DNA of 64,000 bases from Candidatus Flemingiibacterium merdigallinarum. Lineage in GTDB: Bacteria; Bacillota; Clostridia; Oscillospirales; CAG-272. The notes beneath the pieces were generated by a model, which made no database searches, was not told the DNA's origin, and was given only the letters and a program-made list of their open reading frames with translations. Below, one piece after another: positions 17,317 through 60,553 of this stretch (its first letter is position 1; every line of letters starts with the position of its first letter). The position numbers and the translations under genes are program-made. The stretch covers positions 139,525-203,524 of the forward strand of contig CAJFKR010000001.1 of NCBI GenBank assembly GCA_904386005.1. The letters are read 5' to 3'.

Positions 17317-17350
17317 CAAAATCGTCAGGTGTCAGCCTGACGATTTTGTT
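17317..17350 (+). terminator. Rho-independent terminator
   Basis: 13-bp stem caaaatcgtcagg/cctgacgattttg with a T-rich tail. Confidence 0.65.
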
Positions 17351-17354
17351 ATAT

Positions 17355-17446: not shown

Positions 17447-17474
17447 ATGTCCTATTAAGGTCGATTACCTTAAC

Positions 17475-17503
17475 AGTATACCACATTTCCGCCTGTTTGT
17501 CAA
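17475..17503 (-). promoter_or_regulatory. sigma-A promoter of tRNA-Ser (TTGACA-17-TGgTATACT)
   Basis: On the minus strand, TTGACA is at 17498..17503 and TATACT at 17475..17480, with a 17-nt spacer. Confidence 0.55.
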
Positions 17504-17616
17504 GGGGTATATCGAATTTTCCTCGCGATTCCGATTGAATTTTGCGCATGACCGCGGCTGCGCGCCGGTTCTTGAGTCTTTATTGACCATAGTCACAGCG
17601 AAAGCCGGCGTTATGG

Positions 17617-26113: not shown

Positions 26114-26156
26114 GTTTGATTTTGTGTCATCTGGTATCAAGTTCGTCGGCTTTATG

Positions 26157-28265: not shown

Positions 28266-28287
28266 AGACACACACCTTTCAAACAAG

Positions 28288-28549
28288 AGTGGTCTCGACT
28301 TCAGCGAAGCTGAAGTCGAGAGAGTGGAGAGTGGAGAGTGGTCTCAAACCGCCGCAGGCGGTTTGAGAGCTGTGGTAGGAAATCGCCGGAGGCGATTTCC
28401 GGAATTGATTATAAGAGAGGAGAGATGAGAGTGGGGAACGGACTCACCGCGGATGGTTTCGAGAGAACGGGCTCCCAAAGGGTGGTTTCGAGAGAGCGGA
28501 CTCACCGCGTGTGGTTTCGAGAGAGTGGACTTCCCACGGGTGTCGGAGC
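28288..28549 (+). repeat. GA-rich modular hairpin array (three long GNRA-like-looped hairpins plus 29-nt tandem units x3.5)
   Basis: Hairpins at 28293..28321, 28342..28368 and 28378..28400. 29-nt units start at 28438, 28467, 28496 and 28525. The 28318..28400 core recurs at 53783..53862. Confidence 0.7.
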
Positions 28550-29373: not shown

Positions 29374-30351
29374 TCACAACAGCTTTACTCCGTGAGTGGT
29401 CAGATATTCGCCCGCCGCTCGCAGCTCATCGCGCGTCGGCGGCTGACAATCGCTGTCGCGAACATTGCGTCCGAGCGCGGACAGCTTCGAGTTGCCCCAG
29501 GCGTGATAGGGCAGCAGCTTCACGCCGCCGCAGCGCTTCAAGCGTAGGTACAGCGACGCGATATTGTCGAGGTGCCGCTCGTCGAGGTTAACGCCCTTTA
29601 TCAGGATGCACCGCAGCTGTGTCGGCGCGCCGAGCGAGTCGACCGCGAGCAGATTGTCGACTATCACATCGAGCGCGGCGCCGGTGTTCGCGCGATGCCG
29701 AGCGTCGTCCGAGTCCTTGTAGTCCCAGAGCAGCAGGTCGCACAGCTCAACCAGCCGAGGTATGTATTTCGGGTCAAAGCAGCCGCAGGTCTCGACCGCC
29801 GTTCCGATACCGCGTCGGCGGCACTCGGCGAGCAGATCGAGAGCGCAGTCGGGGCTGTACATCGGTTCGCCGCCCGACAGCGTGATTCCACCCTTAGTTC
29901 CCATGAACGCGCGGTCGCGCTCGACAAGGTCGGCGATTTCGGATATCGACATGAGCCGGTACGACGCCTCGAGCGCACCGGTCGGACAGGCGTCGACGCA
30001 GGCAAAGCAGGATTTGCAGCGCGCGCGGTAGATTGTATGCGAGATGGGGATATTGGTGGGAGTGGGTACGTCAGTGTGAACAGCTTCGAATATATGCGCG
30101 CGGCTCGGGCAAGCCTTGGCGCACTCGCCGCAGCCGATGCACTTCTTTTCATAATATAATAGCTGCGCTTCGCGGCTCTGCGTCTCGGGGTTGTGACACC
30201 ACCGGCAGGACAGCGGGCAGCCGGCGAAAAACACTACCGTCCGCACGCCCGGTCCGTCGTGCATACAAAAACGCTGAATATTTGTTACCGGTATCTGAAT
30301 TCCTATTACCTCCTTTCCTTGCCGATGTTTTGTGACGGTTTTGCGAAGCAA
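29374..30351 (-). CDS. Glycyl-radical enzyme activase AE-2 (start uncertain: TTG 30351, or ATT 30300 behind a strong RBS)
   Basis: NIQRFCMHDGPGVRTVVFFAGCPLSCRWCHNPE, plus CIGCGECAKACP and CKSCFACVDACP. Confidence 0.88.
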   Translation of the reverse strand: MLRKTVTKHRQGKEVIGIQIPVTNIQRFCMHDGPGVRTVVFFAGCPLSCRWCHNPETQSREAQLLYYEKKCIGCGECAKACPSRAHIFEAVHTDVPTPTNIPISHTIYRARCKSCFACVDACPTGALEASYRLMSISEIADLVERDRAFMGTKGGITLSGGEPMYSPDCALDLLAECRRRGIGTAVETCGCFDPKYIPRLVELCDLLLWDYKDSDDARHRANTGAALDVIVDNLLAVDSLGAPTQLRCILIKGVNLDERHLDNIASLYLRLKRCGGVKLLPYHAWGNSKLSALGRNVRDSDCQPPTRDELRAAGEYLTTHGVKLL

Positions 30352-30405
30352 ATCGCGGTCTGTGACCGCGAAGTCACAAAACGCGTGGTTTGAAAAATTT
30401 ATTTT

Positions 30406-32568: not shown

Positions 32569-32764
32569 TGCGGTATCTCCCCTCACAAGAATTGATGTGT
32601 GATTTAATTATACCATATATCGCGCCCGATTTGTATTGACAAAACTATGATAAATATGTATAATACTATTAATAAAAAAACCGCTGTCCGGCGCTTCAGT
32701 CGCACGGCAGCGGAAATATATAAATTATGGATTCGCGGTTTTTGCTAAAAATATGAGGGATAAT

Positions 32765-37426: not shown

Positions 37427-38962
37427 TTACTGCCCGAACTTGAGCTTCGCGAGACCTCCCTCGGCGGTCTCCTTGTATTGGCGCGAAATGTCGAGTCCGG
37501 TCTCCTTCATCACGTGTATGACCTTGTCGAGCGAAATTTTGCGCGAGTCGACGAGGAAGCTCGCGAGGCTGACCGCGTTTATCGCGCGCATTGCCGCGAC
37601 CGCGTTGCGCTCGATGCAGGGGATCTGCACAAGCCCGCATATCGGGTCGCAGGTCAGACCTAAGTGGTGCTCGATGGCGATTTCGGCGGCGTATTCAATC
37701 TTGTCGAGGTCGAGTCCGAACAGCTCGGCGAGCGACGCCGCGGCCATCGCGCAGGCTGAGCCGATCTCCGCCTGACAGCCGCACTCGCTGCCCGATATCG
37801 ACGCGTTCGTCTTGATGAGGTTGCCGACGACACCGCCCGCCGCGAGCGCGCGCAGTATCTCCATATCGGTATAGTCGCGCTTCTTCTGCTGATAGTATAA
37901 AACCGCCGGCAAAACTCCCGACGAGCCGCAGGTCGGCGCGGTGACTATCGTCTCGGCGCAGGCGTTCTGCTCGCTGACCGCGAACGCGTAAGCGCAGACC
38001 ATGCGGTTCTCGCGCGTCTCGGCACTCTCGTCTATATGCTCGCGGCATAAAAGCTGCTTTGCCTTTTTCTGCACGCCGAGTCCGCCCGGGAGTATGCCCT
38101 CGTCGGCGAGTCCGCGCTCAATGCTCGCTTTCATGCCGCGCCAGATTTCGGAGAGGTAGTCCCAGATGCCGCTGCCCTCGGCGCGCTCGACATACTGCCA
38201 GAGCCGCAGATTGTTCGCGCGGCACTCCTTCGCTATCTTCTCGAACGACGATACCGGATAGACGTCGGGCGGCTCGGGCAGCAGGTATTTGTCGTTCTCG
38301 AATCTTCCTCCGCCGGTGCTGACAACGCGGATGCGGTCAATCTGTGCGCCTTGTCTGAACGCGATCATGTCCATTGTGTTCGGGTGCGGCAGGTCAAGCT
38401 CGGTCGTGTTGAAAATGATATCGCAGCTGACCGGCGCCAATGTGGCTTTGATTACCCGGTCGGTGCCGTGACCGATTCCGGTCTTGGCGAGCGAGCCGTA
38501 GAGTATCACCTTGAAACGGTCGGCGGTCGGGTTCTTCTCGCGGAACATACGCGACGCGCGTTCGGGCGCTATAGTGTGCGAGCTCGAGGGTCCGCGCCCG
38601 ACGAGGTATAGCTCGGTCAGCGATTTCATACCGGTGGGAGAGGGCTCATCTCTGATTTCAGATTGCAGCTCGCTGCCGAAAAAGTAATCGACCGGAACAT
38701 TGAAGATTTTCGCGAGCTTATACACATTCTCGGTTGACGGCAGCGCGAGTCCGGTCTCCCATTTCGAGACGGCGCGGTTGCTGACGCCGAGCCGCTCGCC
38801 GAGCTCTCGCTGTGTGATGCCGCTGCGTCTGCGCAGCGCGGCGAAGGTCTTAGCAAAGGCTGTGTCTTTAGCAAAGGCTGTGTCTTTAGCAAAGGCTGTG
38901 TCTTTAGCAAAGGTTTCGCCTTTAGCAAAGGCTTTGCCTTTGGCAAATTCGTTTTCGTTCAT
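37427..38962 (-). CDS. XRE-type HTH domain fused to single-chain iron-sulfur L-serine dehydratase (beta + alpha domains)
   Basis: HTH ITQRELGERLGVSNRAVSKWETG. Dehydratase motifs GRGPSSSHT and APTCGSSGVLPAVL. N-terminal FAK-type hexapeptide repeats. Confidence 0.85.
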   Translation of the reverse strand: MNENEFAKGKAFAKGETFAKDTAFAKDTAFAKDTAFAKTFAALRRRSGITQRELGERLGVSNRAVSKWETGLALPSTENVYKLAKIFNVPVDYFFGSELQSEIRDEPSPTGMKSLTELYLVGRGPSSSHTIAPERASRMFREKNPTADRFKVILYGSLAKTGIGHGTDRVIKATLAPVSCDIIFNTTELDLPHPNTMDMIAFRQGAQIDRIRVVSTGGGRFENDKYLLPEPPDVYPVSSFEKIAKECRANNLRLWQYVERAEGSGIWDYLSEIWRGMKASIERGLADEGILPGGLGVQKKAKQLLCREHIDESAETRENRMVCAYAFAVSEQNACAETIVTAPTCGSSGVLPAVLYYQQKKRDYTDMEILRALAAGGVVGNLIKTNASISGSECGCQAEIGSACAMAAASLAELFGLDLDKIEYAAEIAIEHHLGLTCDPICGLVQIPCIERNAVAAMRAINAVSLASFLVDSRKISLDKVIHVMKETGLDISRQYKETAEGGLAKLKFGQ

Positions 38963-47062: not shown

Positions 47063-48829
47063 TTATTTATACAGCGGACCGTATGCGGCGCAGGCACGGT
47101 AGTCTGCGTCCTCGAGGTTGGTCGTGCCGAATGCCGACCATGCGTGCGGACGGTAGACCTTGTCTGCCGGAATATTGTGCATCGATACCGGTATGCGCAG
47201 CATCGAAGCGAGAGTAAGGATATCCGCGCCGATGTGTCCGTAAGCGAACGCGCCGTGGTTTGCGCCCCAGTTAGCCATTACGCTGTAGACATCGGTGAAC
47301 GCGCCCTCTCCGGTGAGCGTCGGTGCGAACCAGATCGAAGGCCAGGTCGGGTCGGTGCGGTCGAGCAATGTATGGGTTACCTTGTCGGGCAGCTCAACGG
47401 TGTAGCCCTCGGCGACCTGGATTACCGGTCCTAATTTGTCGACGAGGTTGACGCGAACCATCGTAACCGGCATTTCGCCCTTCGATATGTACTGGCTCGA
47501 GAATCCGCCGCCGCGGAAGTAGCCCTTGTTCGCCGGAGCCCACTTCGTGTTGGCGAGCATAGCCTCGATGTCGGCGTCGGTGACGTTCCACCATTCCTTC
47601 ATGACCGAGTTGCCGTTTTCGTCCTTAGCCGCGCCGTTGCCGTCGAGTGCCGACGCGCCAGAGTTGATAAGGTGCATGAAGCCGCCCGATGCCTTGCCGG
47701 TGACCTCAAAGCCGGCGACGCGCTTGACCGCGTCGGGGCTCCAGTAGGTGCGCACGTCGGAGAATACCGCCGGACGGTTCGAGACGAGGTTCAGAAGCAG
47801 CATAGCGAGACCGTTGAGGTTGTCATTCTCGGTAGCGAGAATGAACGGCGGGCGCTTGCCGTTCCAGTCGAACGTCGTGTTGAGTATAGCCTCGGTGAAG
47901 TCAGCGTTCGGCATATAGTCGGTCCACTGGCGCTGACCCTGGAAGCCGCCAAAGATAGCGTTGCGGCCGTTCGACTCCTCGATGTAGCCCATTTCGGCGA
48001 GCTTCGGGTTTCCGAGCATAATGTCGCGGACGATGAGCGTCATCTTCGCGATAAACTCCCACTCCTTCTCGTCCTGCTCGGCGTTGTTCTGCCATTCGGG
48101 CGGATTGACCTCGAGACCCTTCGGGCAGTTCTTCTTGATCCACGCGAGTTCCTTCTCGTATTCGTCGTGATCGTAGATGCCGAGGTCTACGCGGCGGAGA
48201 ATCTCAACCATGTCGACCCACTCGGCGCGAATTCCGAGATACTTCTGCATGAAGTCGGGATCTGCGAACGAGCCGGCGATACCCATTGCGACCGCGCCGA
48301 GTCCGCAGTATGCCTTGCCGCGCATGAGTCCGACCGCGATAGCGCAGCGCGCGAAGCGGAGGATTTTTTCAGCGACGTCGGCGGGAATCGTCGTGTCGCC
48401 CATGTCCTGAACGTCGTGACCGTAGATCGCGAACGCGGGAAGTCCGCGCTGTGCGTGCGCGGCCATGACGGCGGCGAGGTAGACCGCGCCGGGGCGCTCG
48501 GTGCCGTTGAAGCCCCAGACCGCCTTAGTCGTCAGCGGGTCGAGGTCCATAGTCTCGCTGCCGTAGCACCAGCAGGGAGTTACCGACAGGGTCGCGCAGA
48601 CGTTCAGCTTTGAGAATTTCTCGGCGCAGAGAGCGGCTTCCTTGCCGCCGCCGATAGTGGTGTCGGCGATGACGCACTCGACGTGCGTTCCGTCCGGATA
48701 GAAGAGCGTCGACTCGATTAACTCCTTTGCGGCGCGAGCCATGTTCATCGTCTGATCCTCAAGGCTCTCGCGGATTCCGCGGCGGCGTCCGTCGATTATC
48801 GGGCGGATGCCGATTACCGGTTTGTTCAT
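47063..48829 (-). CDS. fucI: L-fucose isomerase
   Basis: 588 aa. N-terminus [24 protein letters not shown] and overall colinearity with FucI. Confidence 0.92.
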
Positions 48830-49264: not shown

Positions 49265-50236
49265 ATGAAGCATTGGGCAATCGGCGTGCTGCTTGTATTT
49301 ATATGCTGTCTATCCATATCCTGCGCGGATATAGCCGACGACGGCAATTTGAACACGCCGTCGCCGCGAATCGCGTGGCTTGATAGGATTGTCAGAATTG
49401 AACTCGGCGATGACGCTGACCGCATTGTGTCGTCCGACGGCGAGACTATGTATACGTCCGATGGCGAGCTGCTCGGACTCACCGCCGCCGACGGCTGTGT
49501 ATACTTCCTCGAGCGAGAGGCGAACGGCGGTTCGGCATTGAGCCGCGACGTGACTATAGGCAGAATCGACGCGGACGGTACCGTACACAATCTGACAAGC
49601 GAGCTGTTTTCTGACAGTGAAATACACAACGAGCTCGGATTCATACGCATACTTGACGGCAAAATCTTCATCTCGGGCGCGTCGGCATACGGCGACGCGT
49701 ATCTCTGCGACCCCGAAACCGGAAATGTCAGCTTACGAAATATGCCGGCGACGAACGCGCTCGACAGCGAGAATATCTACTACACCGACGGCGGGTACGA
49801 GATATACCGTCTGACCGCCGACAATTTCGGGGGTGAAGCGGAAATTTACTACGACGGCAGTGACTTTGTCGGCTGGGAGGACGCGGAATATTATGTCGGC
49901 GTCGGAATCGAACAATTATGCGTTGGCGGCGGCAGATTGTACTTTACAGTATCGGCATCTGACGGGTATCGGATATATTCATACGACGGCGAGCTGTCGC
50001 TTCTGCACACAAACGAAAATCCGGTGCGTCAGCTGCAATATTACGGCGGTGAGCTGTATTATTCGGACGAAAACGGAATCTGGCGGCTTTCGGACGAGCC
50101 GGAGCGGATATGCGGGCTCTGTGCGCGCGGGGGCGAGTCGGGTCGGCTGCAAATGTTCGCCTGCGATTTTGTGATACACTCGGGTCGGCTTTACTATGAT
50201 ATCGACGATTTGACAGTATACGAGGAGCTTGGATAA
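49265..50236 (+). CDS. Hypothetical lipoprotein, beta-propeller-like (DUF5050-like YY repeats)
   Basis: Lipobox VFICCLSISCAD. Repeated ...YY.D....I.R... strands. Confidence 0.6.
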   Translation: MKHWAIGVLLVFICCLSISCADIADDGNLNTPSPRIAWLDRIVRIELGDDADRIVSSDGETMYTSDGELLGLTAADGCVYFLEREANGGSALSRDVTIGRIDADGTVHNLTSELFSDSEIHNELGFIRILDGKIFISGASAYGDAYLCDPETGNVSLRNMPATNALDSENIYYTDGGYEIYRLTADNFGGEAEIYYDGSDFVGWEDAEYYVGVGIEQLCVGGGRLYFTVSASDGYRIYSYDGELSLLHTNENPVRQLQYYGGELYYSDENGIWRLSDEPERICGLCARGGESGRLQMFACDFVIHSGRLYYDIDDLTVYEELG

Positions 50237-50251
50237 CAGGGAAGTGGTGAC

Positions 50252-50704
50252 GTGAAAAGGTCGCTGTATATATACGCGGGGATTTTGATACTGCACGCGA
50301 TGAATATGTGCGTCAATTTCTATATTGTCTGGCAGTTGAATATACGCAAGTCGTACGACCCGCCGGAGGGGTGGTTCGAGAGGGCTGACCGGCGAATGTT
50401 CATCGCATCGGCACTGGTATTGACGGTGACGGCAATATATCTGCTGGTGATGTGCCGAAGCGAGCGGTGGCTATGTCTATATCCGGCGGCGCTGACGTTC
50501 GTGAGCGGCGTTTCACTTATATCCGCGCGGTTTGAGTGGTCGACGCCGCTGCAACTGCTGATTGATTTTATAGGCGCGCTGCCGGTGGGGGCGCTCGGGT
50601 TCATCGACCGCGGGCACGAGTACGAGCTGTCACTGGTGTACTATGCTGTGCTGACGTTGCTGGTGGTGTGCGTGATGTTGGTTCGGAGACGGGGGCGGGA
50701 ATGA
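50252..50704 (+). CDS. Hypothetical membrane protein (4 TM)
   Basis: GTG start and four hydrophobic segments. No family recognised. Confidence 0.45.
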   Translation: MKRSLYIYAGILILHAMNMCVNFYIVWQLNIRKSYDPPEGWFERADRRMFIASALVLTVTAIYLLVMCRSERWLCLYPAALTFVSGVSLISARFEWSTPLQLLIDFIGALPVGALGFIDRGHEYELSLVYYAVLTLLVVCVMLVRRRGRE

Positions 50705-50737
50705 ACAGCCAGCTTTTATTTTAGGAGGTGATACTGT

Positions 50738-51532
50738 ATGAAAAAATTGGCTGTTTGTGCAGGTCTTATCACTGTGTTATACCTTATGCAAAGCTGTGCG
50801 GGCAATCAGGTCGAAAGCTCAGCGACTGAAATGGTGAATACTACGCCGGTCTCACCGTCCGACGCGTATTCAACCTCTCCGGCTGAAAGCAGCATAGACG
50901 AAACAACACAAACCGCGTCAGTATCAACGCCGGTTGATTATTCGAATACACAAACCTTTGACAGTATACGGGAAATGAAATTATCAATAGAAGGTACATC
51001 AACTGACTTATCTCTTACCGAAAATACCGATATTAATTCCCTGATTTGGCGCGAGCTCACCGGTCTTGACAGTGAGTATTCGGAGGACTTTGTAGAATGG
51101 TCAGGCGGCGGCAGTTATTTCATCTATTATACAAATGGAGAATATGTGACAGCCTTTATGCCGTTTTCGACTGAAGCGGAGCTGTCGGACGCAATGAATA
51201 GTTGGCTTTCAGTCGACGGAACATATGAAAGCCTTACTGCAAACGAGCGGATATCGGATATAGTCAAAAACGATATTGACACCGAGCTCGGCACGATGTA
51301 TGAATGTACATATAATACTGACAAGGTCGAGGGACTGAAAACCCGATATCACGAATATACCGATGAGGGCGGGAGAACCTACATCCTTTCGCAATCGTTT
51401 ATGTCAGACGGCAGTCTGTCAAGCAACGCGTTGTTTGTGTTTGATGGCGAAGCGTCGTTTATGTGCAGCGGAAATGACCCGAGCTTTACGATGAACTCGG
51501 CACTTAGTCTGATATCGGCTGCAATTGAATGA
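50738..51532 (+). CDS. Hypothetical lipoprotein
   Basis: Lipobox VLYLMQSCAG. TAGGAGG RBS. Confidence 0.6.
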   Translation: MKKLAVCAGLITVLYLMQSCAGNQVESSATEMVNTTPVSPSDAYSTSPAESSIDETTQTASVSTPVDYSNTQTFDSIREMKLSIEGTSTDLSLTENTDINSLIWRELTGLDSEYSEDFVEWSGGGSYFIYYTNGEYVTAFMPFSTEAELSDAMNSWLSVDGTYESLTANERISDIVKNDIDTELGTMYECTYNTDKVEGLKTRYHEYTDEGGRTYILSQSFMSDGSLSSNALFVFDGEASFMCSGNDPSFTMNSALSLISAAIE

Positions 51533-51540
51533 ATAATCTC

Positions 51541-51574
51541 ATCTCCGGCAGCTTCGCTGCCGGAGATTTTTTTC
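51541..51574 (+). terminator. Rho-independent terminator
   Basis: 11-bp stem atctccggcag/ctgccggagat followed by T7. Confidence 0.75.
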
Positions 51575-51701
51575 ATTTTTTTTGTCTTTTTCCCCTTGCC
51601 AAACCCCGCGCTTTGCGGTATAATATTCACAAAGCAATATGATTTGTCCTGCTAAAACACAGGATATATCTGCCAAAATCAGTCAGAAAGGATAATTGCC
51701 A

Positions 51702-53687
51702 ATGTCACAAGCCCTGCTTGACTATGTCCTCGCCGGTGAGCATCACGCGTTCCGCCGAGACGCCGCCGACGCGCTCGGAATCGACAATCTCGCCGAATAC
51801 TACCGCGCCGCCGGACTTACGCCCGAGGAGCGCATGGCGGACCGCTTCGAGCGGCTCTGCCGTGCCGAAACACCGCGTATACTTCCGGACGAAAAAATCT
51901 GCTATGTCCGCACGATAAAAAATATCCCCGACTGCTTCACGCCCGACGAGTGGGACGAGATACGAAAAGGTCACTTCATCCACGAGATCGGCTATATCTC
52001 GAACCTCTCGCCCGACTACGCGAAGGCAATCTCGCGCGGCCTCGTTGCACTGCGCGAAGAAGCCGACGAATACGGACGGCGCGCTATCGACAACATCATC
52101 GACCTCGCCGACCGCTACCGCGACGAGGCTTTGCGTATCGGCCGCGGCGACATCGCCGCGACGCTCGAGCGCGTGCCGCGCTACGGCGCGACGAATCTGC
52201 GCGAGGCGTTGCAGTTCTTCCGGATAATCCACTTCTCGCTCTGGCTCGAGGGCAACTACCACGTCACGACCGGACGCTTTGACAAATACATCTACCCCTA
52301 CTTCAAAGCCGACATGGACAAGGGAATATATACGCGCGAGACCGCGCTCGAGCTCATCGAGGACTTCTTCATCTCGTTCAACAAGGACAGCGACCTCTAC
52401 CCCGGAGTTCAGCAGGGCGACAACGGTCAGTCCATGGTGCTCGGCGGCCGCGACAAAAACGGGCGCGAATGGTTTTCCGAGCTGTCCGAGCTCTGCCTTG
52501 AGGCGAGCCGGAATCTCGGGCTGATCGACCCGAAGATAAACCTGCGCGTGTCGAAGTCGACTCCGATCGATGAATACATAAAGGGCACCGAGCTCACCCG
52601 CGCCGGACTCGGCTTCCCGCAGTATTCGAACGACGACGTCGTAATCGACGGGCTTGTCTCGCTCGGATATTCGCCCGAGGACGCGGCGAACTATGTCGTC
52701 GCCGCCTGCTGGGAGTTTATAATCCCGGGCTGCGCGTTTGATGTCGTGAATATCGGCGCGCTGTCATTCCCTAAGGTTATCGACACTGTGCTTCACACGA
52801 GCTTTTCGGGCTGCAATGACTTTGACGAGCTGCTGGGGAAAGTGCGCGACGAAATCAACGCCGAATGCGACTCGATAACCTCGAAGATTCACGATTTGTG
52901 GTTTGTGCCGTCGCCGTTCATGTCGGTCATGCTCGACGATATCAAGTACCGCAATTTCGGCATACACGGCACCGGCATCGCGACCGCCGCCGACTCGCTC
53001 GCGGCGATTCGAAAATATGTCTATGACGATAAATCCATAACTCCAACCGAGCTTATCGCCGCGGTCGACGACAACTTCGAGCACACTCCCGAGCTGTTGC
53101 ACAAGCTGCGCTATGACGCGCCGAAGATGGGACGTGACGACGACTATGTCGACGGTATCGCTACGTCGCTCGAGGATATGTTCGCCGACTCGCTCGCCGG
53201 CCGCCGGAACTGTGAGGGCGGAATCTATCGCGCCGGAACCGGCTCGGCTATGTACTACCTCTGGCACGCCGCCGAAATCGGCGCGTCGCCCGACGGCAGA
53301 CGCCGCGGCGAGCCGTTCGGCACGAACTTCTCGCCGAGCCTGTTTGCCGATACTGACGGTCCGGTGTCGGTCATAAAGTCGTTCACAAAGCAGCATCTCG
53401 GCAGGGTGATAAACGGAGGTCCGCTGACGCTCGAGTTCCACAACAGCGTATTCCGCGGCGACGACAGCCTTGAAAAAGTCGCGGCTATAGTCAAGTATTT
53501 TATCGACCGCGGCGGTCATCAATTGCAGCTGAACTCGGTCAATCTCGAGACGATGAAGGACGCGAAGCTGCACCCCGACAAGTACCGCCGTCTGGTCGTG
53601 CGGATCTGGGGCTGGAGCGCGTACTTTGTCGAGCTCGACCCCGAGTATCAGGATCATGTTATCGCGAGACAGGAATACAGCATTTAG
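51702..53687 (+). CDS. Glycyl-radical enzyme GRE-3, 661 aa (shortest of the three)
   Basis: C-terminal VVRIWGWSAYF with Gly codon at 53610..53612. Thiyl loop AACWE with Cys codon at 52707..52709. GAAAGGA RBS before ATG 51702. Confidence 0.9.
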   Translation: MSQALLDYVLAGEHHAFRRDAADALGIDNLAEYYRAAGLTPEERMADRFERLCRAETPRILPDEKICYVRTIKNIPDCFTPDEWDEIRKGHFIHEIGYISNLSPDYAKAISRGLVALREEADEYGRRAIDNIIDLADRYRDEALRIGRGDIAATLERVPRYGATNLREALQFFRIIHFSLWLEGNYHVTTGRFDKYIYPYFKADMDKGIYTRETALELIEDFFISFNKDSDLYPGVQQGDNGQSMVLGGRDKNGREWFSELSELCLEASRNLGLIDPKINLRVSKSTPIDEYIKGTELTRAGLGFPQYSNDDVVIDGLVSLGYSPEDAANYVVAACWEFIIPGCAFDVVNIGALSFPKVIDTVLHTSFSGCNDFDELLGKVRDEINAECDSITSKIHDLWFVPSPFMSVMLDDIKYRNFGIHGTGIATAADSLAAIRKYVYDDKSITPTELIAAVDDNFEHTPELLHKLRYDAPKMGRDDDYVDGIATSLEDMFADSLAGRRNCEGGIYRAGTGSAMYYLWHAAEIGASPDGRRRGEPFGTNFSPSLFADTDGPVSVIKSFTKQHLGRVINGGPLTLEFHNSVFRGDDSLEKVAAIVKYFIDRGGHQLQLNSVNLETMKDAKLHPDKYRRLVVRIWGWSAYFVELDPEYQDHVIARQEYSI

Positions 53688-53912
53688 TGAGGAGTTAGGA
53701 GTTAGGAGTGAGGAGTTTCGGTAGAAATTCGCCGAAGGCGAATTTCTGAAACAGAGTGGACTCAAATTCGCGAAGCGAATCCGAGAGAGTGGAGAGTGTG
53801 TGGTCTCAAACCGCCGAAGGCGGTTTGAGAGCTGTGGAAGCAATTCGCCGGCGGCGAATTGCAATTGTTGGAAATTAGAATCCGGCGGATTTGGAAATGA
53901 GTGGTCTCACCA
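53688..53912 (+). repeat. GA-rich modular hairpin array between GRE-3 and AE-3
   Basis: AGGAG x4 run at 53689..53715. Hairpins at 53723..53747, 53761..53787, 53804..53830, 53840..53862 and 53879..53891. The core is shared with 28318..28400. Confidence 0.7.
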
Positions 53913-53935
53913 CACGATTATGAATTATCCCGGCT

Positions 53936-54877
53936 TTGCCGGTTTTGGTGCGAATGAACGATATATTTGATACAGCTGATGGAATTGAAAAATCTGGTCG
54001 GGCTGACGGATTTGATGGAATTGACAAATCTGATAAATTTGATAAAGGCGAAGATACACACGAGCCGCGCGGCATCGTCTTTGACATAAAGGAGTTCGCG
54101 GTGCATGACGGGCCGGGTGTGCGGACGACGGTGTTCATGAAAGGCTGTCCGCTTTCCTGCCGCTGGTGTCACAATCCCGAGGGCTTGTCGCCGCGCCCCG
54201 AGCTGATGGTCAAGACCGCGCGCTGCCGTCACTGCGGCTTGTGTACGCGTCCCTGCGAACACGAGGACTGCAAGCCGTACGGTCGCTGTCTGCATATCTG
54301 TCCGGAGGGACTGATATCGGTCGTCGGCAAAAGCTGGACGCCCGACGAGCTGGCGGCGCGGATACTTCGAGACTATGATTTTCTGAAATCGAGCGGCGGC
54401 GTGACGATCTCGGGCGGCGAGCCGACGATGCAATCCGAGTTCGTGTCAGAGCTGCTGCGCCGGCTGCATGGGCTGCACCGCGCGGTCGAGACCTGCGGAT
54501 ATTGCAGCGGCGAGCGGTTCACGTCGGTGATAAATGAGTGCGATTATGTGATAATGGACATAAAGCTCGCCGACCCCGAAGCGCACAAGGTGTGGTGCGG
54601 CGTCGACAATGCCCCGATCCTCGAAAATTTCGAGCGGTTAAGGTCGAGCGGGCGCGAGTATCTCGTCCGAGTGCCGCTGATACCCGACGTCACCGACACG
54701 CGCGAGAATCTCGCCGCGATATCCGAAATCGTCGGCGACAGCAGGGTCGAGCTGCTCGGCTACAACAATATGGCGGGCGCGAAGTATGCCGGAGTCGGGC
54801 GGGTTTACACGCTTCCTGACAAGAAGAACCGCGAGATCGACCTTGCGCTGTTCAAGCACGCGGTATTGAGCCGGTAA
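53936..54877 (+). CDS. Glycyl-radical enzyme activase AE-3 (start uncertain: TTG 53936 or ATG 53954)
   Basis: FDIKEFAVHDGPGVRTTVFMKGCPLSCRWCHNPE, plus CRHCGLCTRPC and CLHICP. Low-complexity N-terminal extension. Confidence 0.88.
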   Translation: MPVLVRMNDIFDTADGIEKSGRADGFDGIDKSDKFDKGEDTHEPRGIVFDIKEFAVHDGPGVRTTVFMKGCPLSCRWCHNPEGLSPRPELMVKTARCRHCGLCTRPCEHEDCKPYGRCLHICPEGLISVVGKSWTPDELAARILRDYDFLKSSGGVTISGGEPTMQSEFVSELLRRLHGLHRAVETCGYCSGERFTSVINECDYVIMDIKLADPEAHKVWCGVDNAPILENFERLRSSGREYLVRVPLIPDVTDTRENLAAISEIVGDSRVELLGYNNMAGAKYAGVGRVYTLPDKKNREIDLALFKHAVLSR

Positions 54878-54953
54878 AATTCAATACACAGCATTGAGGA
54901 AATCGGGATAGAGAAATATTCGGAGAGGGAATCAATCAGAGAGGGAAAGCAAA

Positions 54954-57032
54954 ATGAACACAATCAAAATCACCCGCGCCGCCTTTGCACTCGCGGACGG
55001 CGGCATATACGAATTCACGCGCACGAACAACGGCTGGGAATACGCGTCGGGCGATATCAGCGCGCATCTGACAGTTACGGTTGACGAGCAAACCGCAGAC
55101 TTCGGCGTACTCGGCGCGATACGCGTATCGGCTTCGGTCGACGGCGGATGCTTTTCGGCAGACAACGCGATAATGCTGACTGTCGGCGAGGACATACCGG
55201 CTGTCAGCTACATGGCGAACTACCAGAGCTGTCCGCACTGGTGCCGTCCGGCGTTCCCCGAGACACAGGACGCGATACCGAACAAGACGCAGGCGTTACT
55301 CGGCAGATACGGTGATGAATACGGCTTTATCCTGCCGGTCGTGGACGAGACCTACAAGACCGCGCTGCGCGGCGGCGATGTCTCGGGGAGGGGCGGCATG
55401 GAGCTGTATAGCTTCGCGAACGTGTCGAATTTAAGTGAATGTGAGACGCTCGCGGCGGTATACGCGTTTGGAGCTGAGCCGTACAAGCTCGCGAGCGAGT
55501 GCGCGAAATACGCGCTTGAGCTGCTGAACAACGGCGCGGCGATCCGAGCCGAGCGCCGCTATCCCGAGATATTCGAATATCTCGGCTGGTGCTCGTGGGA
55601 CGCGCTCGAGATACGTGTCAGCACCGAGGGACTGCTCGAGAAGTGCCGCGAGTTCAAGGAGAAGAACATACCGGTGAAGTGGGCGATAATCGACGATATG
55701 TGGGCCGAGTGCGACAATCTGCGCGACATACCCGACGACCTGACGCGCGAGACGGGAATGTTCAAGGTCATGCACTCGTCGAAGCTGCGCAGCTTCGAAG
55801 CCGACCCGAAGCGCTTCCCGTTGGGACTTCGCGACTGCATAGCAAAGATACACGAATACGGACTTAAGGTGGGTATGTGGCACCCGACAAGCGGCTACTG
55901 GTCGGGTATCGACCCGACGTCGCCGCTCGCGGACGAGCTGCGCGAGCTCCTTATCGAGACACCGAACGGTCGGCTGCTGCCGAAGCCCGAGCTTGAGACG
56001 GCTTATCTATTCTACAACGCGTTCCACGATTTCCTCAAAGCCTGCGGCGCCGACTTTGTGAAGATAGACAATCAGGGCTTCATCGCCGAGAACTATCGCG
56101 AGGTACTGCCGCTCGGCAAGGCGGCGCGTGCGTTGCAGAAGGCTATCTGCTCGTCGGTCGGCGCGCACTTTGACAACGACATCATCAACTGCATGGGCAT
56201 GGCGAGCGAGAATATGTTCAACCGCCCGTCGGGCGCGGTTTCGCGCTGCTCGGGAGACTTTTTGCCCGAGAACCGCGAGTGGTTCATACGGCACATACTC
56301 GCCTGCTCGTACAACTCGCTCGTGCAGGGACAGTTCTACTGGAGCGACTGGGATATGTGGTGGACCGACGACGAGCAGGCGAAGAAGAACAGCGTCCTGC
56401 GCGCGATTTCGGGCGGCCCTATCTATGTCAGCGACAAGATCGGGCGCAGCCGTCCGGAGGTGTTCGAGCCGCTCTGCTACAGTGACGGTCGGATTCTGCG
56501 CTGCGAGTCGCCGGCGACGCCGACGCTCGACTGTCTTACGGTCGACCCCGAGAAGAGCGGACGGATATTCAAGGTGAAGAATCTATACGACAAGGGCGGC
56601 GTGATCGCGGCGTTCAACCTCGACGCGGGAAATCAGCCGGTCAGCGGCAGCATCCGCGCCGCCGATTTGGGACTTAGCGGCGAGGTCGCGATATACGAGC
56701 ATTTCTCGGGCGAGGCGTGGATTTTAGCGGACGGCGATAGTCTCGACGTGACCTTGTCCGACCACGACGACTTCCGGCTCTACACGATAGTGCCGTTCGA
56801 CAAAATCGCGGTGCTCGGTCTTATCGACAAATTCAACTCTCCGCTCGCGGTATCCGGCGGATTCGACGATGTATACTCGCTCTACGAGGGCGGCGAGTTC
56901 GCGATAGTCGCTCCGGAGGGCGAATACAAGCTGCACACCGACGCCGGCGACTATGCGCTCGAGCGGAATGGGTGCGTATATTCGGCGAAGCTGCCGCTTG
57001 AGACACGCGCGGTGAAGATTGTGCGGCGATGA
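54954..57032 (+). CDS. Cytoplasmic GH36-clan / raffinose-synthase (Sip1)-like glycosidase
   Basis: YLGWCSWDALE, WAIIDDMW and FVKIDNQG motifs. No signal peptide. GAGAGGGAAAG RBS. Confidence 0.72.
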   Translation: MNTIKITRAAFALADGGIYEFTRTNNGWEYASGDISAHLTVTVDEQTADFGVLGAIRVSASVDGGCFSADNAIMLTVGEDIPAVSYMANYQSCPHWCRPAFPETQDAIPNKTQALLGRYGDEYGFILPVVDETYKTALRGGDVSGRGGMELYSFANVSNLSECETLAAVYAFGAEPYKLASECAKYALELLNNGAAIRAERRYPEIFEYLGWCSWDALEIRVSTEGLLEKCREFKEKNIPVKWAIIDDMWAECDNLRDIPDDLTRETGMFKVMHSSKLRSFEADPKRFPLGLRDCIAKIHEYGLKVGMWHPTSGYWSGIDPTSPLADELRELLIETPNGRLLPKPELETAYLFYNAFHDFLKACGADFVKIDNQGFIAENYREVLPLGKAARALQKAICSSVGAHFDNDIINCMGMASENMFNRPSGAVSRCSGDFLPENREWFIRHILACSYNSLVQGQFYWSDWDMWWTDDEQAKKNSVLRAISGGPIYVSDKIGRSRPEVFEPLCYSDGRILRCESPATPTLDCLTVDPEKSGRIFKVKNLYDKGGVIAAFNLDAGNQPVSGSIRAADLGLSGEVAIYEHFSGEAWILADGDSLDVTLSDHDDFRLYTIVPFDKIAVLGLIDKFNSPLAVSGGFDDVYSLYEGGEFAIVAPEGEYKLHTDAGDYALERNGCVYSAKLPLETRAVKIVRR

Positions 57033-57105
57033 GGAGAAATAGATAATAAATTGACATAACAAATGGCTGTCGTTTTTTAGCGACAGCCATATTGTGTATT
57101 CTTTG

Positions 57106-57915
57106 TTATAACAATTTAATGATATTATTTCTATATTCAGTTGGAGATTGCTTACTATACTTTTTAAAAAACAGTGAAAAATTTGAAACATTATCAAATC
57201 CCACCATAACAGCAATATCACTGATGCTTTTTTCAGTCGAAGTTAGCAGCATACAGGCGTATTCATACCGTTTAATATTTAATAAAGCTTTGACACTCAT
57301 ACCAAAATATCGATGACATATGCGTTGAAGACTTGATATACTGGTATAGAGACCATCAGCGATATCAGTTAGTGTAATATTATCTGATATATGAGTGTTG
57401 ATGTATTCGGTAAGACGAGTAGAATTTAGCTTGGACATATCGAGTTCACTTTGATTAATTATTTGACAAATAATTAATTTAGCAGCTAAGTTTTGTGCCT
57501 CATACGCCAAACAATCACTCTGAAATAAACTATTGGACAGCACTGTGGTGAACTTTAATATCTCGGGAATATTTAGAATTGTAGGAGTTTTGAATTTATC
57601 GATAAGGCTATAAGGGGGTGTATTATTATCATAAACCATATCTATGCCGCACTGACTATATCCATTAACGCTTGTTAACATATGATTATAAGCAGGCGGA
57701 ATAATCATAACACAGCCTTCGCGTACGACAAAAGTATTGTTGTCATTATAAACATTCAAACTGCCACAGGTAACAACAATAAATTGATAAAACTCATGCT
57801 GATGATAATCCATTTTAAAGCCGGCAGGGCGTACCATATAGTCGATATGGATTATTGGATAATCGGGGTGACTTGATACATATGAAATTTCTGTTTGCAA
57901 CGCGTAATCTCCCAT
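57106..57915 (-). CDS. AraC-family transcriptional regulator (AT-rich islet)
   Basis: C-terminal HTH ISDIAVMVGFDNVSNFSLFFKKYSKQSPTEYRNN. Cupin-like N-terminus. Confidence 0.85.
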   Translation of the reverse strand: MGDYALQTEISYVSSHPDYPIIHIDYMVRPAGFKMDYHQHEFYQFIVVTCGSLNVYNDNNTFVVREGCVMIIPPAYNHMLTSVNGYSQCGIDMVYDNNTPPYSLIDKFKTPTILNIPEILKFTTVLSNSLFQSDCLAYEAQNLAAKLIICQIINQSELDMSKLNSTRLTEYINTHISDNITLTDIADGLYTSISSLQRICHRYFGMSVKALLNIKRYEYACMLLTSTEKSISDIAVMVGFDNVSNFSLFFKKYSKQSPTEYRNNIIKLL

Positions 57916-58037
57916 TGACTCGATTTAATAACATTATGAACATTTTTTATATTGTAATTATCGGTCTGTTCTTGTATAATATAGACAAAGCCTGTGTTTG
58001 TTATATATGGGCTAATAAAAATGAGGTGGGAAATGCT

Positions 58038-59468
58038 ATGTACCGAGTATTTTCATTGATATGCGTTCTATCGCTGCTAATGGCAAGTGTTTCATGTGTC
58101 AGTGATGACAACGATGTTGTGACGACTAATGAATCATCTCAATCAGAAGTTGAAACAACAGAGTTATTTACTGTTGAAATTAAGGATTTTGACAACTATG
58201 ATTTCAGATTCTACACATATTCAACAGGCGTTGATATGTATGCGCCGGAAGAGGAGACAGGCGATATTGTAAATGACGCGGTATACCGTCGAAATCGCGA
58301 AATCGAAGAAATGTACAATATCACTATCAGTACGATTGACAGCGGCACGTTGAATGAAAGAGAACATAGAGATGCGATTAATACAATGATCAACGCGGGC
58401 GATGAGGCTTGCGATGTTGTATTGAATATTGGAAAGCAGCTGGCAAACCAAGCGCTGGATGGTTATTATATCAATATGTATGATATTGAGGAATTCGACT
58501 TCGACAAATCGTGGTGGTCAAAGCAGCTTGTAGAAGATTTATCGTTTTCTGGTTGTATGTATTTTTGCTCAAACAATCTCCATTATGAGGAATTTGCGGC
58601 TTCGAAGGTGTTTTACTTCAACAAAGATAAAATCGACGAATACCAACTGGATGATCCATATGAGCTTGTTTTAAGCGGAAAATGGGTAATTAATCGAATG
58701 ATTGAAATGACACGAGATGTTAACGAGGATTTGAATGGCAACAATATAGCTGACAACGAAGATTTTTACGGCTTGCTGACTACTGTGTCACATAATGCGT
58801 GGGCAGTTTGCTTTGATATCCCAGTGTGGGAAAAAAATAATGACTCAATTGAATTGGTGGCAATGAGCGATAAAATGTTAAATGCATTCGATAAAATCCA
58901 CTCGTGGTATTATGACAGCATTGGATTATATACGTGGGATAGTTACTCAAAAGCAATAAATGAGATGCGCGATATGTTCAAAGCCGGGCAGGGGATGTTT
59001 GTATTTGGTTTTGTGGGTGATTCCGGCACATATTATAGAGATACCGATGTCGATTATGGTATTGTACCATTTCCAAAATACGATGAAAATCAAGAAAATT
59101 ATCGTGTATTCTTCGGAGCTAATACGTCAAATATGTTTGCCATCCCGATATTTGCATCCGATAAATCAAGAACCGGTCTAATATTAGAGGCGCTTTCGGC
59201 TAAAGGATATGAGGAATTGATACCGGTATATTATGAGGTCGCACTCAAAGATAAATATATGAGAGATGAAACTTCGGTAGAAATTCTTGACATTATTACT
59301 GAAAACAGAACCATCAGCTTTTCATATTGTTATGACAATTGGGATGCCGGTCTTGGCTTTGGTAATTGTTTTCAGAGTGAATTTAAAGATAGTTTCTCTA
59401 CATTCTACGCTGCTCGTGAAAATATTGTAAAATCACGCATACAGAAAGTAGTTGAAGCTTTTACTTAA
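58038..59468 (+). CDS. ABC transporter sugar/oligosaccharide-binding lipoprotein (AT-rich islet), with no adjacent permease genes
   Basis: Lipobox LLMASVSCVSD at ATG 58038. Paralog of 33778..35256. Confidence 0.85.
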   Translation: MYRVFSLICVLSLLMASVSCVSDDNDVVTTNESSQSEVETTELFTVEIKDFDNYDFRFYTYSTGVDMYAPEEETGDIVNDAVYRRNREIEEMYNITISTIDSGTLNEREHRDAINTMINAGDEACDVVLNIGKQLANQALDGYYINMYDIEEFDFDKSWWSKQLVEDLSFSGCMYFCSNNLHYEEFAASKVFYFNKDKIDEYQLDDPYELVLSGKWVINRMIEMTRDVNEDLNGNNIADNEDFYGLLTTVSHNAWAVCFDIPVWEKNNDSIELVAMSDKMLNAFDKIHSWYYDSIGLYTWDSYSKAINEMRDMFKAGQGMFVFGFVGDSGTYYRDTDVDYGIVPFPKYDENQENYRVFFGANTSNMFAIPIFASDKSRTGLILEALSAKGYEELIPVYYEVALKDKYMRDETSVEILDIITENRTISFSYCYDNWDAGLGFGNCFQSEFKDSFSTFYAARENIVKSRIQKVVEAFT

Positions 59469-59523
59469 TCATCATACTTGCAGTAAGTCAGTTTCTTGCC
59501 AGTGCGGGCATTTCATCACGCGA

Positions 59524-59560
59524 CCCTTTGCGTCATGAGACGCAAGGGCCGCGCTTTTGT
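59524..59560 (+). terminator. Probable terminator
   Basis: Stem ccctttgcgtc/gacgcaaggg with loop atga. The T-run begins 6 nt later. Confidence 0.5.
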
Positions 59561-59665
59561 ACCATAACTTACTGAAGTGACGCTCACAATCTGTACACCC
59601 TGTCGCAGGCTTTAGTATTATATTCGGTTAACTGCATTTGTGACGTCGTAAGTAGTCAACCGCGG

Positions 59666-60553
59666 TCAGTCTATGGCCTTTATCTTGTAGCCGACCGAAT
59701 ACTTCTTGCCCGGCTCAAGCGTGATCGCGTAGGGCTTGTCCTCGAAGTTGCCGGTCTCGCCGAGGTGCGCGGGGAGTCCGTTCCACGGCTCGAGGCAGAC
59801 GAACGGAGCCTGCTTTTTCGGTGGCGTCCAGACGCCGAGCGCGTTGAAGCCGGTGAAGTCGAAGTCGATGCCCTTGCCGGTGTTCTTGTTGACCAGCTTG
59901 ACCTGACGGCTCTTCAGCTTCTTTGCGAGCAGCACGTCGACGTCGAAGTCGGGATAGTTCAGCTCCCACTCGTTCGTGTTCTTCAGCTTGTCGGTTATCG
60001 GCAGCGATGGGTCTATGTAACCTCCGCCGTAGTTGGTTGTGTAGATGACGTCCTCATTCTCGACCTCGCTGAATATCAGCTTGTAATCCGAGAATTTCTC
60101 GCCGTCATGCAGCGGGCATTTGAAGCCGGCGTGACCGCCGATGCAGAACACGATGTTCTTCGAGTCGATATTCTCGACTGTATATGTAGTCGAGAAGCCC
60201 TCGTCACTGATTTTGTGCTCGATAAGCAGACGGAACTTGTACGGGTAGACCTCGTGCGACGCGGCGCTGTCGAATAATTCGTACACGAGCCGGTCGGAGT
60301 CGGCTTCGAGCAGCCGGAACTCCTGCTTGCGCGCAAAGCCGTGCTTCTTCAGCGGATACGCCTTGCCCTCGAATTTTACGCTGTCGTCGATTGTCGAGCC
60401 GACTGTCGGGAACAATACCGGCGCGTGGCTTGCCCAGTACTCGGGCAGTCCCTCCCAGACGTATTCCTGCCCGTCGCGCTTATACGAGACAAGCTCGCCG
60501 CCGAGCGTTGAGCCGACAGCCACGGCTTTCGCGGTTTTAATTTCTGTGTTCAT
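59666..60553 (-). CDS. Aldose 1-epimerase (galactose-mutarotase-like) family protein
   Basis: PVLFPTVG...HGFAR...GGHAGF...CLEPW pattern. Confidence 0.85.
   Translation of the reverse strand: MNTEIKTAKAVAVGSTLGGELVSYKRDGQEYVWEGLPEYWASHAPVLFPTVGSTIDDSVKFEGKAYPLKKHGFARKQEFRLLEADSDRLVYELFDSAASHEVYPYKFRLLIEHKISDEGFSTTYTVENIDSKNIVFCIGGHAGFKCPLHDGEKFSDYKLIFSEVENEDVIYTTNYGGGYIDPSLPITDKLKNTNEWELNYPDFDVDVLLAKKLKSRQVKLVNKNTGKGIDFDFTGFNALGVWTPPKKQAPFVCLEPWNGLPAHLGETGNFEDKPYAITLEPGKKYSVGYKIKAID

Follow-up and report, generated by a model that had tools for sequence, protein, structure and literature searches.

The 64,000-nucleotide stretch of Candidatus Flemingiibacterium merdigallinarum analysed here (contig CAJFKR010000001.1, positions 139,525 to 203,524, hereafter the window) carries three consecutive genes on its plus strand, as placed by open reading frame (ORF) listing and family scans: a glycyl radical enzyme (GRE) designated GRE-3, its radical S-adenosylmethionine (radical-SAM) activase AE-3, and a glycosidase related to family GH36 (Table 1). 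An earlier sequence-only reading of this DNA had noted the common direction of these genes and suggested that a GRE was wired into the catabolism of glycosides. Comparison with homologous loci now indicates, at the level of gene content and sequence, that the members of the GRE/activase/GH36-like trio are functionally linked in a genuine and conserved way. The true start of GRE-3 is the ATG at 51702, with the identical protein present on metagenome contigs and entered in 48 blocks of a public metagenome collection; residue numbers follow the 663-aa ORF that opens at a TTG, and not the 661-aa ATG form.

Several signals delimit the trio. On its 5′ side, a hairpin terminator closes a group of upstream genes and therefore isolates the GRE operon from them, and it is followed by a predicted promoter lying ~75 nt 5′ of the GRE-3 start codon and by an AAAGGA ribosome-binding site 9 nt ahead of the ATG. 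The gap that separates AE-3 from the glycosidase gene, where the sequence-only reading could find no hairpin, indeed contains no terminator-like site and folds no better than its shuffled versions (minimum free energy, MFE, −10.3; z −1.16). On the 3′ side, transcription would end at a bidirectional hairpin (MFE −28.2, z −5.7). With such a promoter, downstream terminator and unstructured gap, the plus-strand trio looks like one operon, and from these sequence signals we infer co-transcription of a self-contained three-gene unit spanning 51596..57090. A search of Rfam between 49 and 61 kb (E ≤ 1) gave no match, and hence no riboswitch or known RNA in either the leader or the spacer between GRE-3 and AE-3.

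Folding of this intercistronic spacer gave an MFE of −96.1 (z −3.9), and revealed three perfect hairpins of 11-12 bp (53723-53747, 53804-53830 and 53840-53862) built on a common CGCC-GAAG/GGC-GGCG core, which coexist with GGAGTKA tandem repeats. Since the GRE-AE gap measures 0-15 nt in homologous loci, against 266 nt here, the spacer is lineage-specific. It may act as a stabiliser of the GRE message or as an attenuator of read-through towards AE-3 and the glycosidase gene, and the element could set the ratio between GRE and activase. A palindrome related to the spacer hairpin, AAATCGCCGGAGGCGATTT, is found at 28380-28398, just 5′ of another GRE gene of the window (GRE-1, described below), and constitutes the only other match to the hairpin in the window (5 matches against 0.03 expected by chance).

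Table 1. Genes and sequence signals at the GRE-3 locus (window coordinates)
Feature	Coordinates	Strand	Description
L-fucose isomerase (FucI)	47063..48829	-	NF008220, 1005 bits vs cutoff 775
Hairpin terminator	51541..51567	+	12-bp stem then T-run; ends upstream lipoprotein genes
Sigma-70-like promoter, TTGCCA-17-TATAAT	51596..51624	+	11/12 consensus positions; consensus match only
GRE-3	51702..53687	+	661 aa; PF02901 + PF01228
GRE-3/AE-3 intercistronic spacer	53688..53953	+	266 nt; structured
AE-3, radical-SAM activase	53954..54877	+	307 aa; TIGR02494
AE-3/GH36-like gap	54878..54953	+	76 nt; unstructured
GH36-like glycosidase, predicted cytoplasmic	54954..57032	+	692 aa; PF05691
Bidirectional hairpin terminator	57063..57090	.	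12-bp stem; serves GH36-like gene and convergent AraC gene
AraC-family regulator	57106..57915	-	269 aa; cupin + HTH_18
Lipoprotein, family uncertain	58038..59468	+	476 aa; no family match
Aldose 1-epimerase (mutarotase)	59666..60553	-	295 aa; PF01263

A scan with one genome per species detected relatives of GRE-3 in at least 568 species. For a forward test of the adjacency, 80 GRE loci with 43-73% identity to GRE-3 were kept, with neighbour statistics derived from simple ORF calling in draft genomes and metagenome-assembled genomes (MAGs). A GH36-like gene was found within 4 kb of the GRE in 13 of the 80 species genomes and, when well-flanked loci were considered, in 9/28 of those belonging to the clade of at least 57% identity versus 0/21 of the more distant ones. 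Moreover, all six closest relatives inspected have the GRE/GH36-like adjacency, namely L084 (78% GRE identity), L091 (76%), L085 and L026 (73%), L086 (69%, in a convergent arrangement) and L168, where the trio stands alone amid unrelated genes (rubredoxin, rubrerythrin, GroES/EL) and encodes a GH36-like protein indexed in 51 blocks of the metagenome collection. A reverse test, in which metagenome contigs were scanned with an alignment of GH36-like proteins, revealed a GRE-3-type GRE together with its activase in 12-13 of the 28 GH36-like loci flanked on each side by 3.5 kb or more, and in 23 of the 55 loci with a one-sided flank. De novo clustering of the neighbours of 76 GH36-like loci put the activase (18 loci) and the GRE (17) on top, the next family being LacI with 8. 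The gene order varies among GRE-AE-GH, GH-GRE-AE and convergent arrangements, which argues for selection on the linkage rather than for shared ancestry alone, and the linkage is maintained over 41-97% identity of the GH36-like protein.

If the adjacency reflected shared regulation or chance co-inheritance, with the GRE and the GH36-like enzyme working in unrelated pathways, it would be easy to understand why two thirds of the clade loci lack a GH36-like gene and why the glycosidase partners are heterogeneous across the family. Such an explanation is nevertheless very improbable in view of the reciprocal enrichment, where GRE and activase are the top neighbours of GH36-like genes, of the survival of the linkage through at least three rearranged gene orders and over the whole range of GH36-like identity, and of the trio that persists alone in the unrelated neighbourhood of L168. 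The pairing proposed from the window alone is therefore borne out by related genomes in both directions. Among cultured organisms, the trio is present in Ructibacterium gallinarum DSM 107454, and the GRE and activase only in Acetatifactor aquisgranensis DSM 110981. One metagenome locus, L169, contains GRE fragments of 152, 90 and 84 aa with PFL-like/Gly_radical matches (16255-17732), 5 kb away from a GH36-like paralog without an intact GRE whose neighbours are a GH2 beta-galactosidase and an AraA-like isomerase, and looks like a decayed copy of the module.

GRE-3 itself displays the hallmarks of the superfamily, which are a PFL-like barrel of ten strands (PF02901, E 1.5e-80), a glycyl-radical domain at the C-terminus (PF01228, E 2e-16) with the radical glycine in the loop R636-I-W-G639-W-S-A-Y-F, a catalytic cysteine in the loop A-A-C338-W339-E340, and an adjoining activase. 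The latter, AE-3, scores 270 bits on TIGR02494 (cutoff 174) and has the radical-SAM cluster motif CPLSCRWC (CX3CX2C), a GGEP motif and a reduced ferredoxin-like Cys insert; a member of the AE cluster was detected in 69 of 81 sources (the 80 GRE loci plus the window), and the activase adjoins the GRE in nearly all of the 80 loci. A CXE motif is the hallmark of GRE 1,2-eliminases and isomerases (June 2026 review, PMC13450708), and C338-W339-E340, invariant across the 76 aligned family members (76/76), agrees with this class as a motif, not as a geometry. Together with the nearest relatives, the motif suggests an eliminase-type chemistry for GRE-3. A total of 20 putative active-site or loop positions are invariant or near-invariant in the 76 members (C338, W339, E340, D349, N352, R512, G514, T515, G516, A518, M519, Y521, N573, P576, T578, E580, R636, W638, G639 and W640), whatever the neighbouring glycosidase. 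Because the putative active site stays constant next to differing glycosidase partners, the whole short-form family probably shares one chemistry.

Known identities were considered for GRE-3 and discarded. NCBIfam scores for HypD, HpsG/HpfG, PflD, CutC, the decarboxylases and PFL fall 4- to 12-fold under cutoff, as illustrated by HypD NF043068 (270.9 bits, cutoff 1100), the C-S lyases HpfG and HpsG (252 and 240 bits, cutoff 1000), the PflD-type NF007437 (240.3 bits, cutoff 1109) and CutC (214 bits, cutoff 1050), and the model of the glycerol dehydratase/PFL2 subfamily, TIGR01774, gave 298.5 bits with a cutoff of 678.2. Identity to solved structures (glycerol dehydratase, PflD, HypD, propanediol dehydratase, CutC and YbiW) is 20-25%, with scores that barely differ among the best of them. 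An AlphaFold model of GRE-3 (pLDDT 73.5, pTM 0.81) superposes on GRE structures with TM-scores of 0.77-0.83, PflD 8id0 being nominally the highest at 0.83. Judged by these comparisons, GRE-3 is the ortholog of no characterised GRE, in agreement with the sequence-only reading, which could not assign its reaction to a known enzyme. Two further GRE/activase pairs lie on the minus strand of the window, at 25121-28286 and 29374-32586. Both of their GREs are short-form, GRE-1 with 709 aa and the motifs CVE and GGY, and GRE-2 with 726 aa and the motifs CWE and SGW, and they score 437 and 276 bits on TIGR01774 (cutoff 678), and stay far under every NCBIfam equivalog cutoff. As GRE-1, GRE-2 and GRE-3 all stay below the equivalog cutoffs, the window holds three uncharacterised GREs.

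A closer comparison with glycerol dehydratase (GD) and propanediol dehydratase (PD) suggests how the pocket of GRE-3 may have changed. The protein is ~125 residues shorter than GD, and in alignments that are weak but agree with one another GD His164 and its counterpart in one PD fall on the invariant Asn103 of GRE-3, a register that leaves ~60 residues missing at the N-terminus, the region which carries the dimer-interface helices of GREs. In beta8, GRE-3 reads R512-A-G-T-G516-S-A518 where GD and PD have Q-P/A-G-L-Y-P-S/V, so that a Tyr has become Gly and A518 stands at the position of PD Val696 and HypD Thr645, and GRE-3 has a deletion where GD carries the aromatic of its 'YPMY-Q' segment. 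The aromatics of the 'GLYP' and 'YPMY-Q' segments presumably line the GD/PD pocket and, provided that they do, a larger pocket is suggested for GRE-3. In the same line, the replacement of the general-acid His by Asn103 suggests a leaving group other than a simple hydroxyl handled in the GD way, and the invariant Arg512 might bind an anionic group.

These substitutions bear directly on the idea that GRE-3 could be a small-diol dehydratase, a short-form analogue of the B12-independent glycerol dehydratase or of 1,2-propanediol dehydratase, whose glycerol, 1,2-propanediol or ethylene glycol would come from an aglycone (for example, the galactosylglycerol of plant galactolipids) or from the fermentation of fucose, rhamnose or arabinose. 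The best sequence and fold matches of GRE-3 are precisely GD 1r8w and the PDs 5i2a and 9rco, L-fucose isomerase is recurrently close by, certain operons include a class II aldolase and GH78 rhamnosidases, and an aldo-keto reductase is present in the locus L058. However, the lead in score over HypD, PflD and CutC is marginal (315 vs 280-284 bits), the TIGR01774 value given above stays under its cutoff, and the beta1 His proposed as the general acid of GD is the invariant Asn103 in GRE-3. The 'GLYP' and 'YPMY-Q' aromatics have turned into Gly516 or been deleted, and neither microcompartment shell genes nor those of an aldehyde dehydrogenase or a 1,3-propanediol dehydrogenase were found among the commonest neighbour families, all of which makes a small diol an unlikely substrate.

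The third gene of the trio encodes a protein that matches PF05691 with 211 bits (cutoff 20, E 2.7e-62) and has its closest solved relative in Arabidopsis AtAkalphaGal3 (PDB 7exf, alkaline alpha-galactosidase/raffinose synthase; 184 bits). In the plant enzyme, the nucleophile is Asp383 in K-V-D and the acid/base is Asp447 in R-x-x-D-D, whereas Asp243, Asp244, Trp307, Lys381 and Arg443 form the galactose-binding −1 subsite, and Asp446 and Tyr449 the +1 (aglycone) subsite (PMC9912918). The window glycosidase keeps the nucleophile (K370-I-D372), the acid/base (R431-x-x-x-D435) and the −1 residues D247, D248 and W309, the catalytic and −1 residues being invariant in 17/17 GRE-linked homologs, and it has Gly434 and Leu437 replacing the plant Asp446 and Tyr449 in the +1 subsite. 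No signal peptide was seen on direct reading of the sequence. With this set of residues, it is read as a competent, presumably retaining enzyme that acts on a sugar of galacto configuration and differs from the plant enzymes in its aglycone preference.

The nature of this glycosidase, together with Arg512, helps to judge another possibility, in which GRE-3 would cleave a bond beside an anionic group on a sugar, either as a C-S lyase on sulfoquinovose or sulfofucose or as an eliminase on a uronic or other sugar acid. By spacing, the invariant Arg512 occupies the position of IslA Arg678, 127 residues from the radical glycine, Asn103 falls at the IslA Gln193 site, and the locus recalls a sulfoglycolysis gene set, with a clan-D glycosidase, a mutarotase, a FucI-family isomerase and, in relatives, DUF4867. 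But the sulfonate triad of the C-S lyases IslA, IseG and HpsG (beta1 Arg and Gln, beta8 Arg) is not reproduced in GRE-3, where weak HMMER alignments put Gly99 in the place of the beta1 Arg (IslA Arg189) and Asn103 in that of the Gln, and where the equivalence of Arg512 to Arg678 is one of spacing only, at a position where HypD has an Arg as well without using it. Moreover, C-S lyase equivalogs reach 240-252 bits vs a cutoff of 1000, the glycosidase is a GH36 with an intact galactose −1 subsite and not a GH31 sulfoquinovosidase, the partner glycosidases of the family are of neutral plant-sugar types, and no sulfite exporter or sulfite reductase was found among the commonest neighbours. An anionic sugar as substrate is accordingly quite improbable, and the analogy with sulfoquinovose clusters drawn by the sequence-only reading turns out to be weak.

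A wider view of the family was obtained from a census of 250 proteins encoded by the first and second neighbours at the 80 genome loci. It comprises 26 AraC regulators, ~11 LacI/GntR-type sugar regulators, 10 PF05691 (GH36-like) proteins, 9 members of GH127, 8 beta-galactosidases of GH2/GH35/GH42, 6 GH51-like proteins, 6 XylE-like sugar porters of the major facilitator superfamily (MFS), 4 DUF4867 proteins and 2 members of GH78, with further GH78 genes in individually annotated loci. The distant GRE clades adjoin GH127, GH51, GH78 or beta-galactosidase genes. In this regard, Bacteroidales loci show the order AE-GRE-MFS-GH51-like-GH127 with a GntR-type regulator, and a [Clostridium] symbiosum MAG (L058) the order AE-GRE-GH78-monosaccharide ATP-binding cassette (ABC) transporter-LacI-aldo/keto reductase. 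The richest context met for guessing the pathway is a long, co-directional operon of Acutalibacteraceae MAGs (L018, 399-21982, and L037), which runs through FucI, an unknown 634-aa protein, GH36-like, DUF4886, AraC, a melibiase-type GH36, GRE, DUF4867, AE, GH78, a metallophosphoesterase, a class II aldolase, GH94, a beta-lactamase-fold esterase and a SASA esterase. DUF4867, which in several loci stands between GRE and AE or directly after both, has been proposed to open ketose rings or to act as a mutarotase, and usually accompanies FucI-family isomerases (PMC11968277). With such regulators, glycosidases and sugar porters, the family-wide context is best read as that of a carbohydrate-linked GRE substrate, in line with the radical chemistry on a sugar or aglycone initially suggested for the window.

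Alpha-galactosidase, beta-galactosidase, arabinofuranosidase and rhamnosidase activities make up a set that fits the glycans of arabinogalactan-proteins and extensins. The GRE might then act on the hydroxyproline (Hyp) of these plant proteins, or on a Hyp O-glycoside, after neighbouring glycosidases strip the glycans, a view favoured by the partner set of the family (alpha-Gal, beta-Gal, alpha- and beta-L-arabinofuranosidases and rhamnosidase) and by HypD as the second-best NCBIfam and PDB match. Nevertheless, the NF043068 score stays far from its cutoff (270.9 bits vs 1100), the HypD Asp278 position is a Val or Asn (residue 190) that varies across the family, HypD Arg156 and His160 correspond to Gly99 and Asn103 in GRE-3, regulators and transporters are of sugar type, and a pyrroline-5-carboxylate reductase is missing among the commonest neighbours, so that we give this explanation very little credit.

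Around the trio, the AraC regulator, the lipoprotein and the mutarotase had been taken, together with the glycosidase, for one classic glycoside-utilisation cassette. The three genes are certainly present, followed by an FtsH gene, but AraC and the mutarotase are on the minus strand and so outside the transcription unit of the trio. AraC (GC 33%, and 29% at third codon positions, GC3) and the lipoprotein gene (GC 38%, GC3 37%) are a compositionally foreign two-gene insert (57106-59468), in comparison with GRE-3, AE-3, the GH36-like gene, the mutarotase, FtsH and FucI, which have GC 57-61% and GC3 72-81%. This low-GC island, which separates the GH36-like gene from the mutarotase, has the look of a horizontal insertion that took place recently. 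Moreover, AraC, lipoprotein and mutarotase accompany the trio on same-species or near-identical contigs only (L081-L083, L089) and are not beside it in the other species inspected (GRE identity up to 78%; L084, L085, L086 and L168), and no mutarotase occurs in the 28 well-flanked GH36-like loci (0/28). With different strands, foreign composition and absence from relatives, the idea of a single conserved cassette is not supported.

AraC and the lipoprotein may nevertheless be functionally connected with the trio. AraC-type regulators are the commonest neighbour class of the GRE family, and the AraC of the window may regulate the operon, though it lies outside the cross-species module; members of the lipoprotein family turn up again close to GH36-like genes, in five to nine metagenome loci. 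The product of the lipoprotein gene shows a visible lipoprotein-type signal peptide, as the sequence-only reading had it, whereas for the sugar binding also claimed there is a marginal PDB match to 3quf (E 0.029 over 100 residues), with no Pfam or NCBIfam match even at E 0.01 and no permease genes adjoining. The protein may be a distant member of the family-1 solute-binding proteins.

Located ~3 kb upstream of GRE-3, FucI provides the isomerase that the window was thought to lack. As in the window, it is encoded only a few kb from the GRE in L018, L026, L084, L085, L091 and L122, and also on the same-species contigs L081-L083. Between FucI and the GRE operon, and cut off from the latter by the strong terminator, three co-oriented plus-strand genes (49265-51532; 323, 134 and 264 aa) have no family matches, two of them encoding lipoprotein-type signal peptides, and in L084 their position is taken by a 329-aa gene without Pfam match. 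Farther away, a single 511-aa ORF on the minus strand (37427-38962) fuses an XRE-type helix-turn-helix domain (HTH_3) to the beta and alpha chains of L-serine dehydratase.

Altogether, the reading that we favour, by a narrow balance of probability, is that GRE-3 cleaves a C-O bond by radical chemistry of the eliminase or isomerase type, in a carbohydrate-derived substrate supplied in the cytoplasm by the GH36-like enzyme. AE-3, with S-adenosylmethionine and its [4Fe-4S] cluster, would install the radical on Gly639, from where it would pass to Cys338 in each turnover. The resulting thiyl radical would remove a hydrogen from one of the substrate's carbinol carbons, Glu340 of the CXE motif would deprotonate the carbinol hydroxyl, and the ketyl radical so formed would eject a vicinal oxygen substituent, be it a hydroxyl, a ring oxygen or an ether oxygen. 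Return of the hydrogen atom would yield a keto-deoxy or ring-opened product usable by ordinary sugar metabolism. The radical relay and the role of Glu340 are proposed because of the conserved motifs and the class definition, and the carbohydrate nature of the substrate is what we infer from gene context. The substrate would be freed in the cytoplasm by the co-encoded retaining enzyme of alpha-galactosidase type, and candidates are the released galacto-configured sugar, its ketose isomer or the aglycone. The −1 subsite of the glycosidase, as predicted, speaks for a galactose-like sugar, and the presence of FucI and DUF4867 suggests that aldose and ketose are interconverted. None of the candidates weighed from context (L-arabinose or D-galactose, 6-deoxy sugars, O-methyl sugars or cyclitols, galactosylglycerol, Hyp-glycosides) stood out, since the GRE is not accompanied by any conserved downstream enzyme.

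Several observations weigh against this proposal. The GH36-like adjacency is seen in about one third of the window's own clade and in none of the distant clades, and around half of the GRE loci have no glycosidase within two genes, so that the GRE substrate may be only loosely tied to glycoside cleavage. The combination of varied glycosidase partners with an invariant putative active site is hard to reconcile with the released sugar as substrate, and conservation with the GRE extends to no kinase, aldolase or dedicated downstream enzyme. At the locus, a weak terminator-like GC hairpin followed by a T-run at 53930-53950, within the GRE-AE spacer, may attenuate transcription into AE-3 and the GH36-like gene. 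Finally, the AlphaFold model of GRE-3 has low confidence at 505-553 and 630-663, which correspond to parts of the second half-barrel and to the glycyl-radical domain.

GREs allow anaerobes to perform reactions beyond those of ordinary acid-base enzymes, and past assignments such as choline lyase, hydroxyproline dehydratase, isethionate lyase and the anhydro-sugar isomerases have each opened a new gut route. The short-form family (655-690 aa) is a distinct GRE clade, although the GRE/activase pair itself is ordinary in principle. A full-text literature search gave no description of a short-form GRE family or of a GRE-glycosidase module, and what appears to be new here, on comparative sequence grounds, is a short-form GRE clade with a conserved glycosidase partnership. 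If the coupling means chemistry on a sugar or glycoside, a radical step would be added to the degradation of plant fibre in gut and rumen. A bolder proposal, advanced tentatively and somewhat short of an even chance in our estimation, is that the short 'CWE/WGW' family would be the first GRE to act on an unphosphorylated plant carbohydrate released by a glycosidase, or on the glycoside itself, through radical C-O cleavage, dehydration or ring opening. If true, hundreds of Bacillota and Bacteroidota species of gut and rumen would share a new anaerobic route for plant-glycan sugars, with the trio as its minimal mobile module. The trio is, in any case, a compact three-gene system with cultured carriers.

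Among known systems, the plant enzyme 7exf resembles the window glycosidase in its motifs KxD and RxxxD and in the galactose-binding Asp-Asp and Trp, but the window enzyme is bacterial and cytoplasmic, has ~30% identity over the catalytic core and differs in the +1 subsite, and the plant enzyme works without a partner GRE. As for the radical enzymes, HypD (trans-4-hydroxy-L-proline dehydratase), an abundant gut GRE eliminase, shares an Arg at the beta8 position equivalent to R512, whereas GRE-3 falls far under the HypD equivalog cutoff and does not conserve Asp278, Arg156 or His160. GD 1r8w and the PDs 5i2a and 9rco share with GRE-3 the fold, the CXE motif and the activase subfamily, and a conserved Asp after the Cys loop (D349 in GRE-3, probably D447 in GD by alignment inspection) is also common. 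GRE-3 differs from them in its 22-25% identity, the Asn103 that replaces the beta1 His, the replaced or deleted pocket aromatics and the internal deletions added to the shortened N-terminus, and aldehyde-handling and microcompartment genes are not among its commonest neighbours. YbiW and PflD, isomerases of 1,5-anhydroglucitol-6-phosphate and 1,5-anhydromannitol-6-phosphate in 'anhydroglycolysis', are the only sugar-acting GREs listed in the June 2026 review (PMC13450708) and represent the closest functional precedent. Like GRE-3 they have a CXE Cys loop, and their chemistry, in which a hydrogen is abstracted at a carbinol and a C-O bond is then cleaved, served as the template for the model put forward for GRE-3. 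In comparison with both, GRE-3 has 22% identity, is ~110-150 residues shorter, carries the motifs CWE and WGW instead of the usual CVE and AGY, has no phosphotransferase system or kinase among its commonest neighbour families and therefore no sign of a phosphorylated substrate, and, unlike YbiW and PflD, is coupled to glycoside hydrolases.

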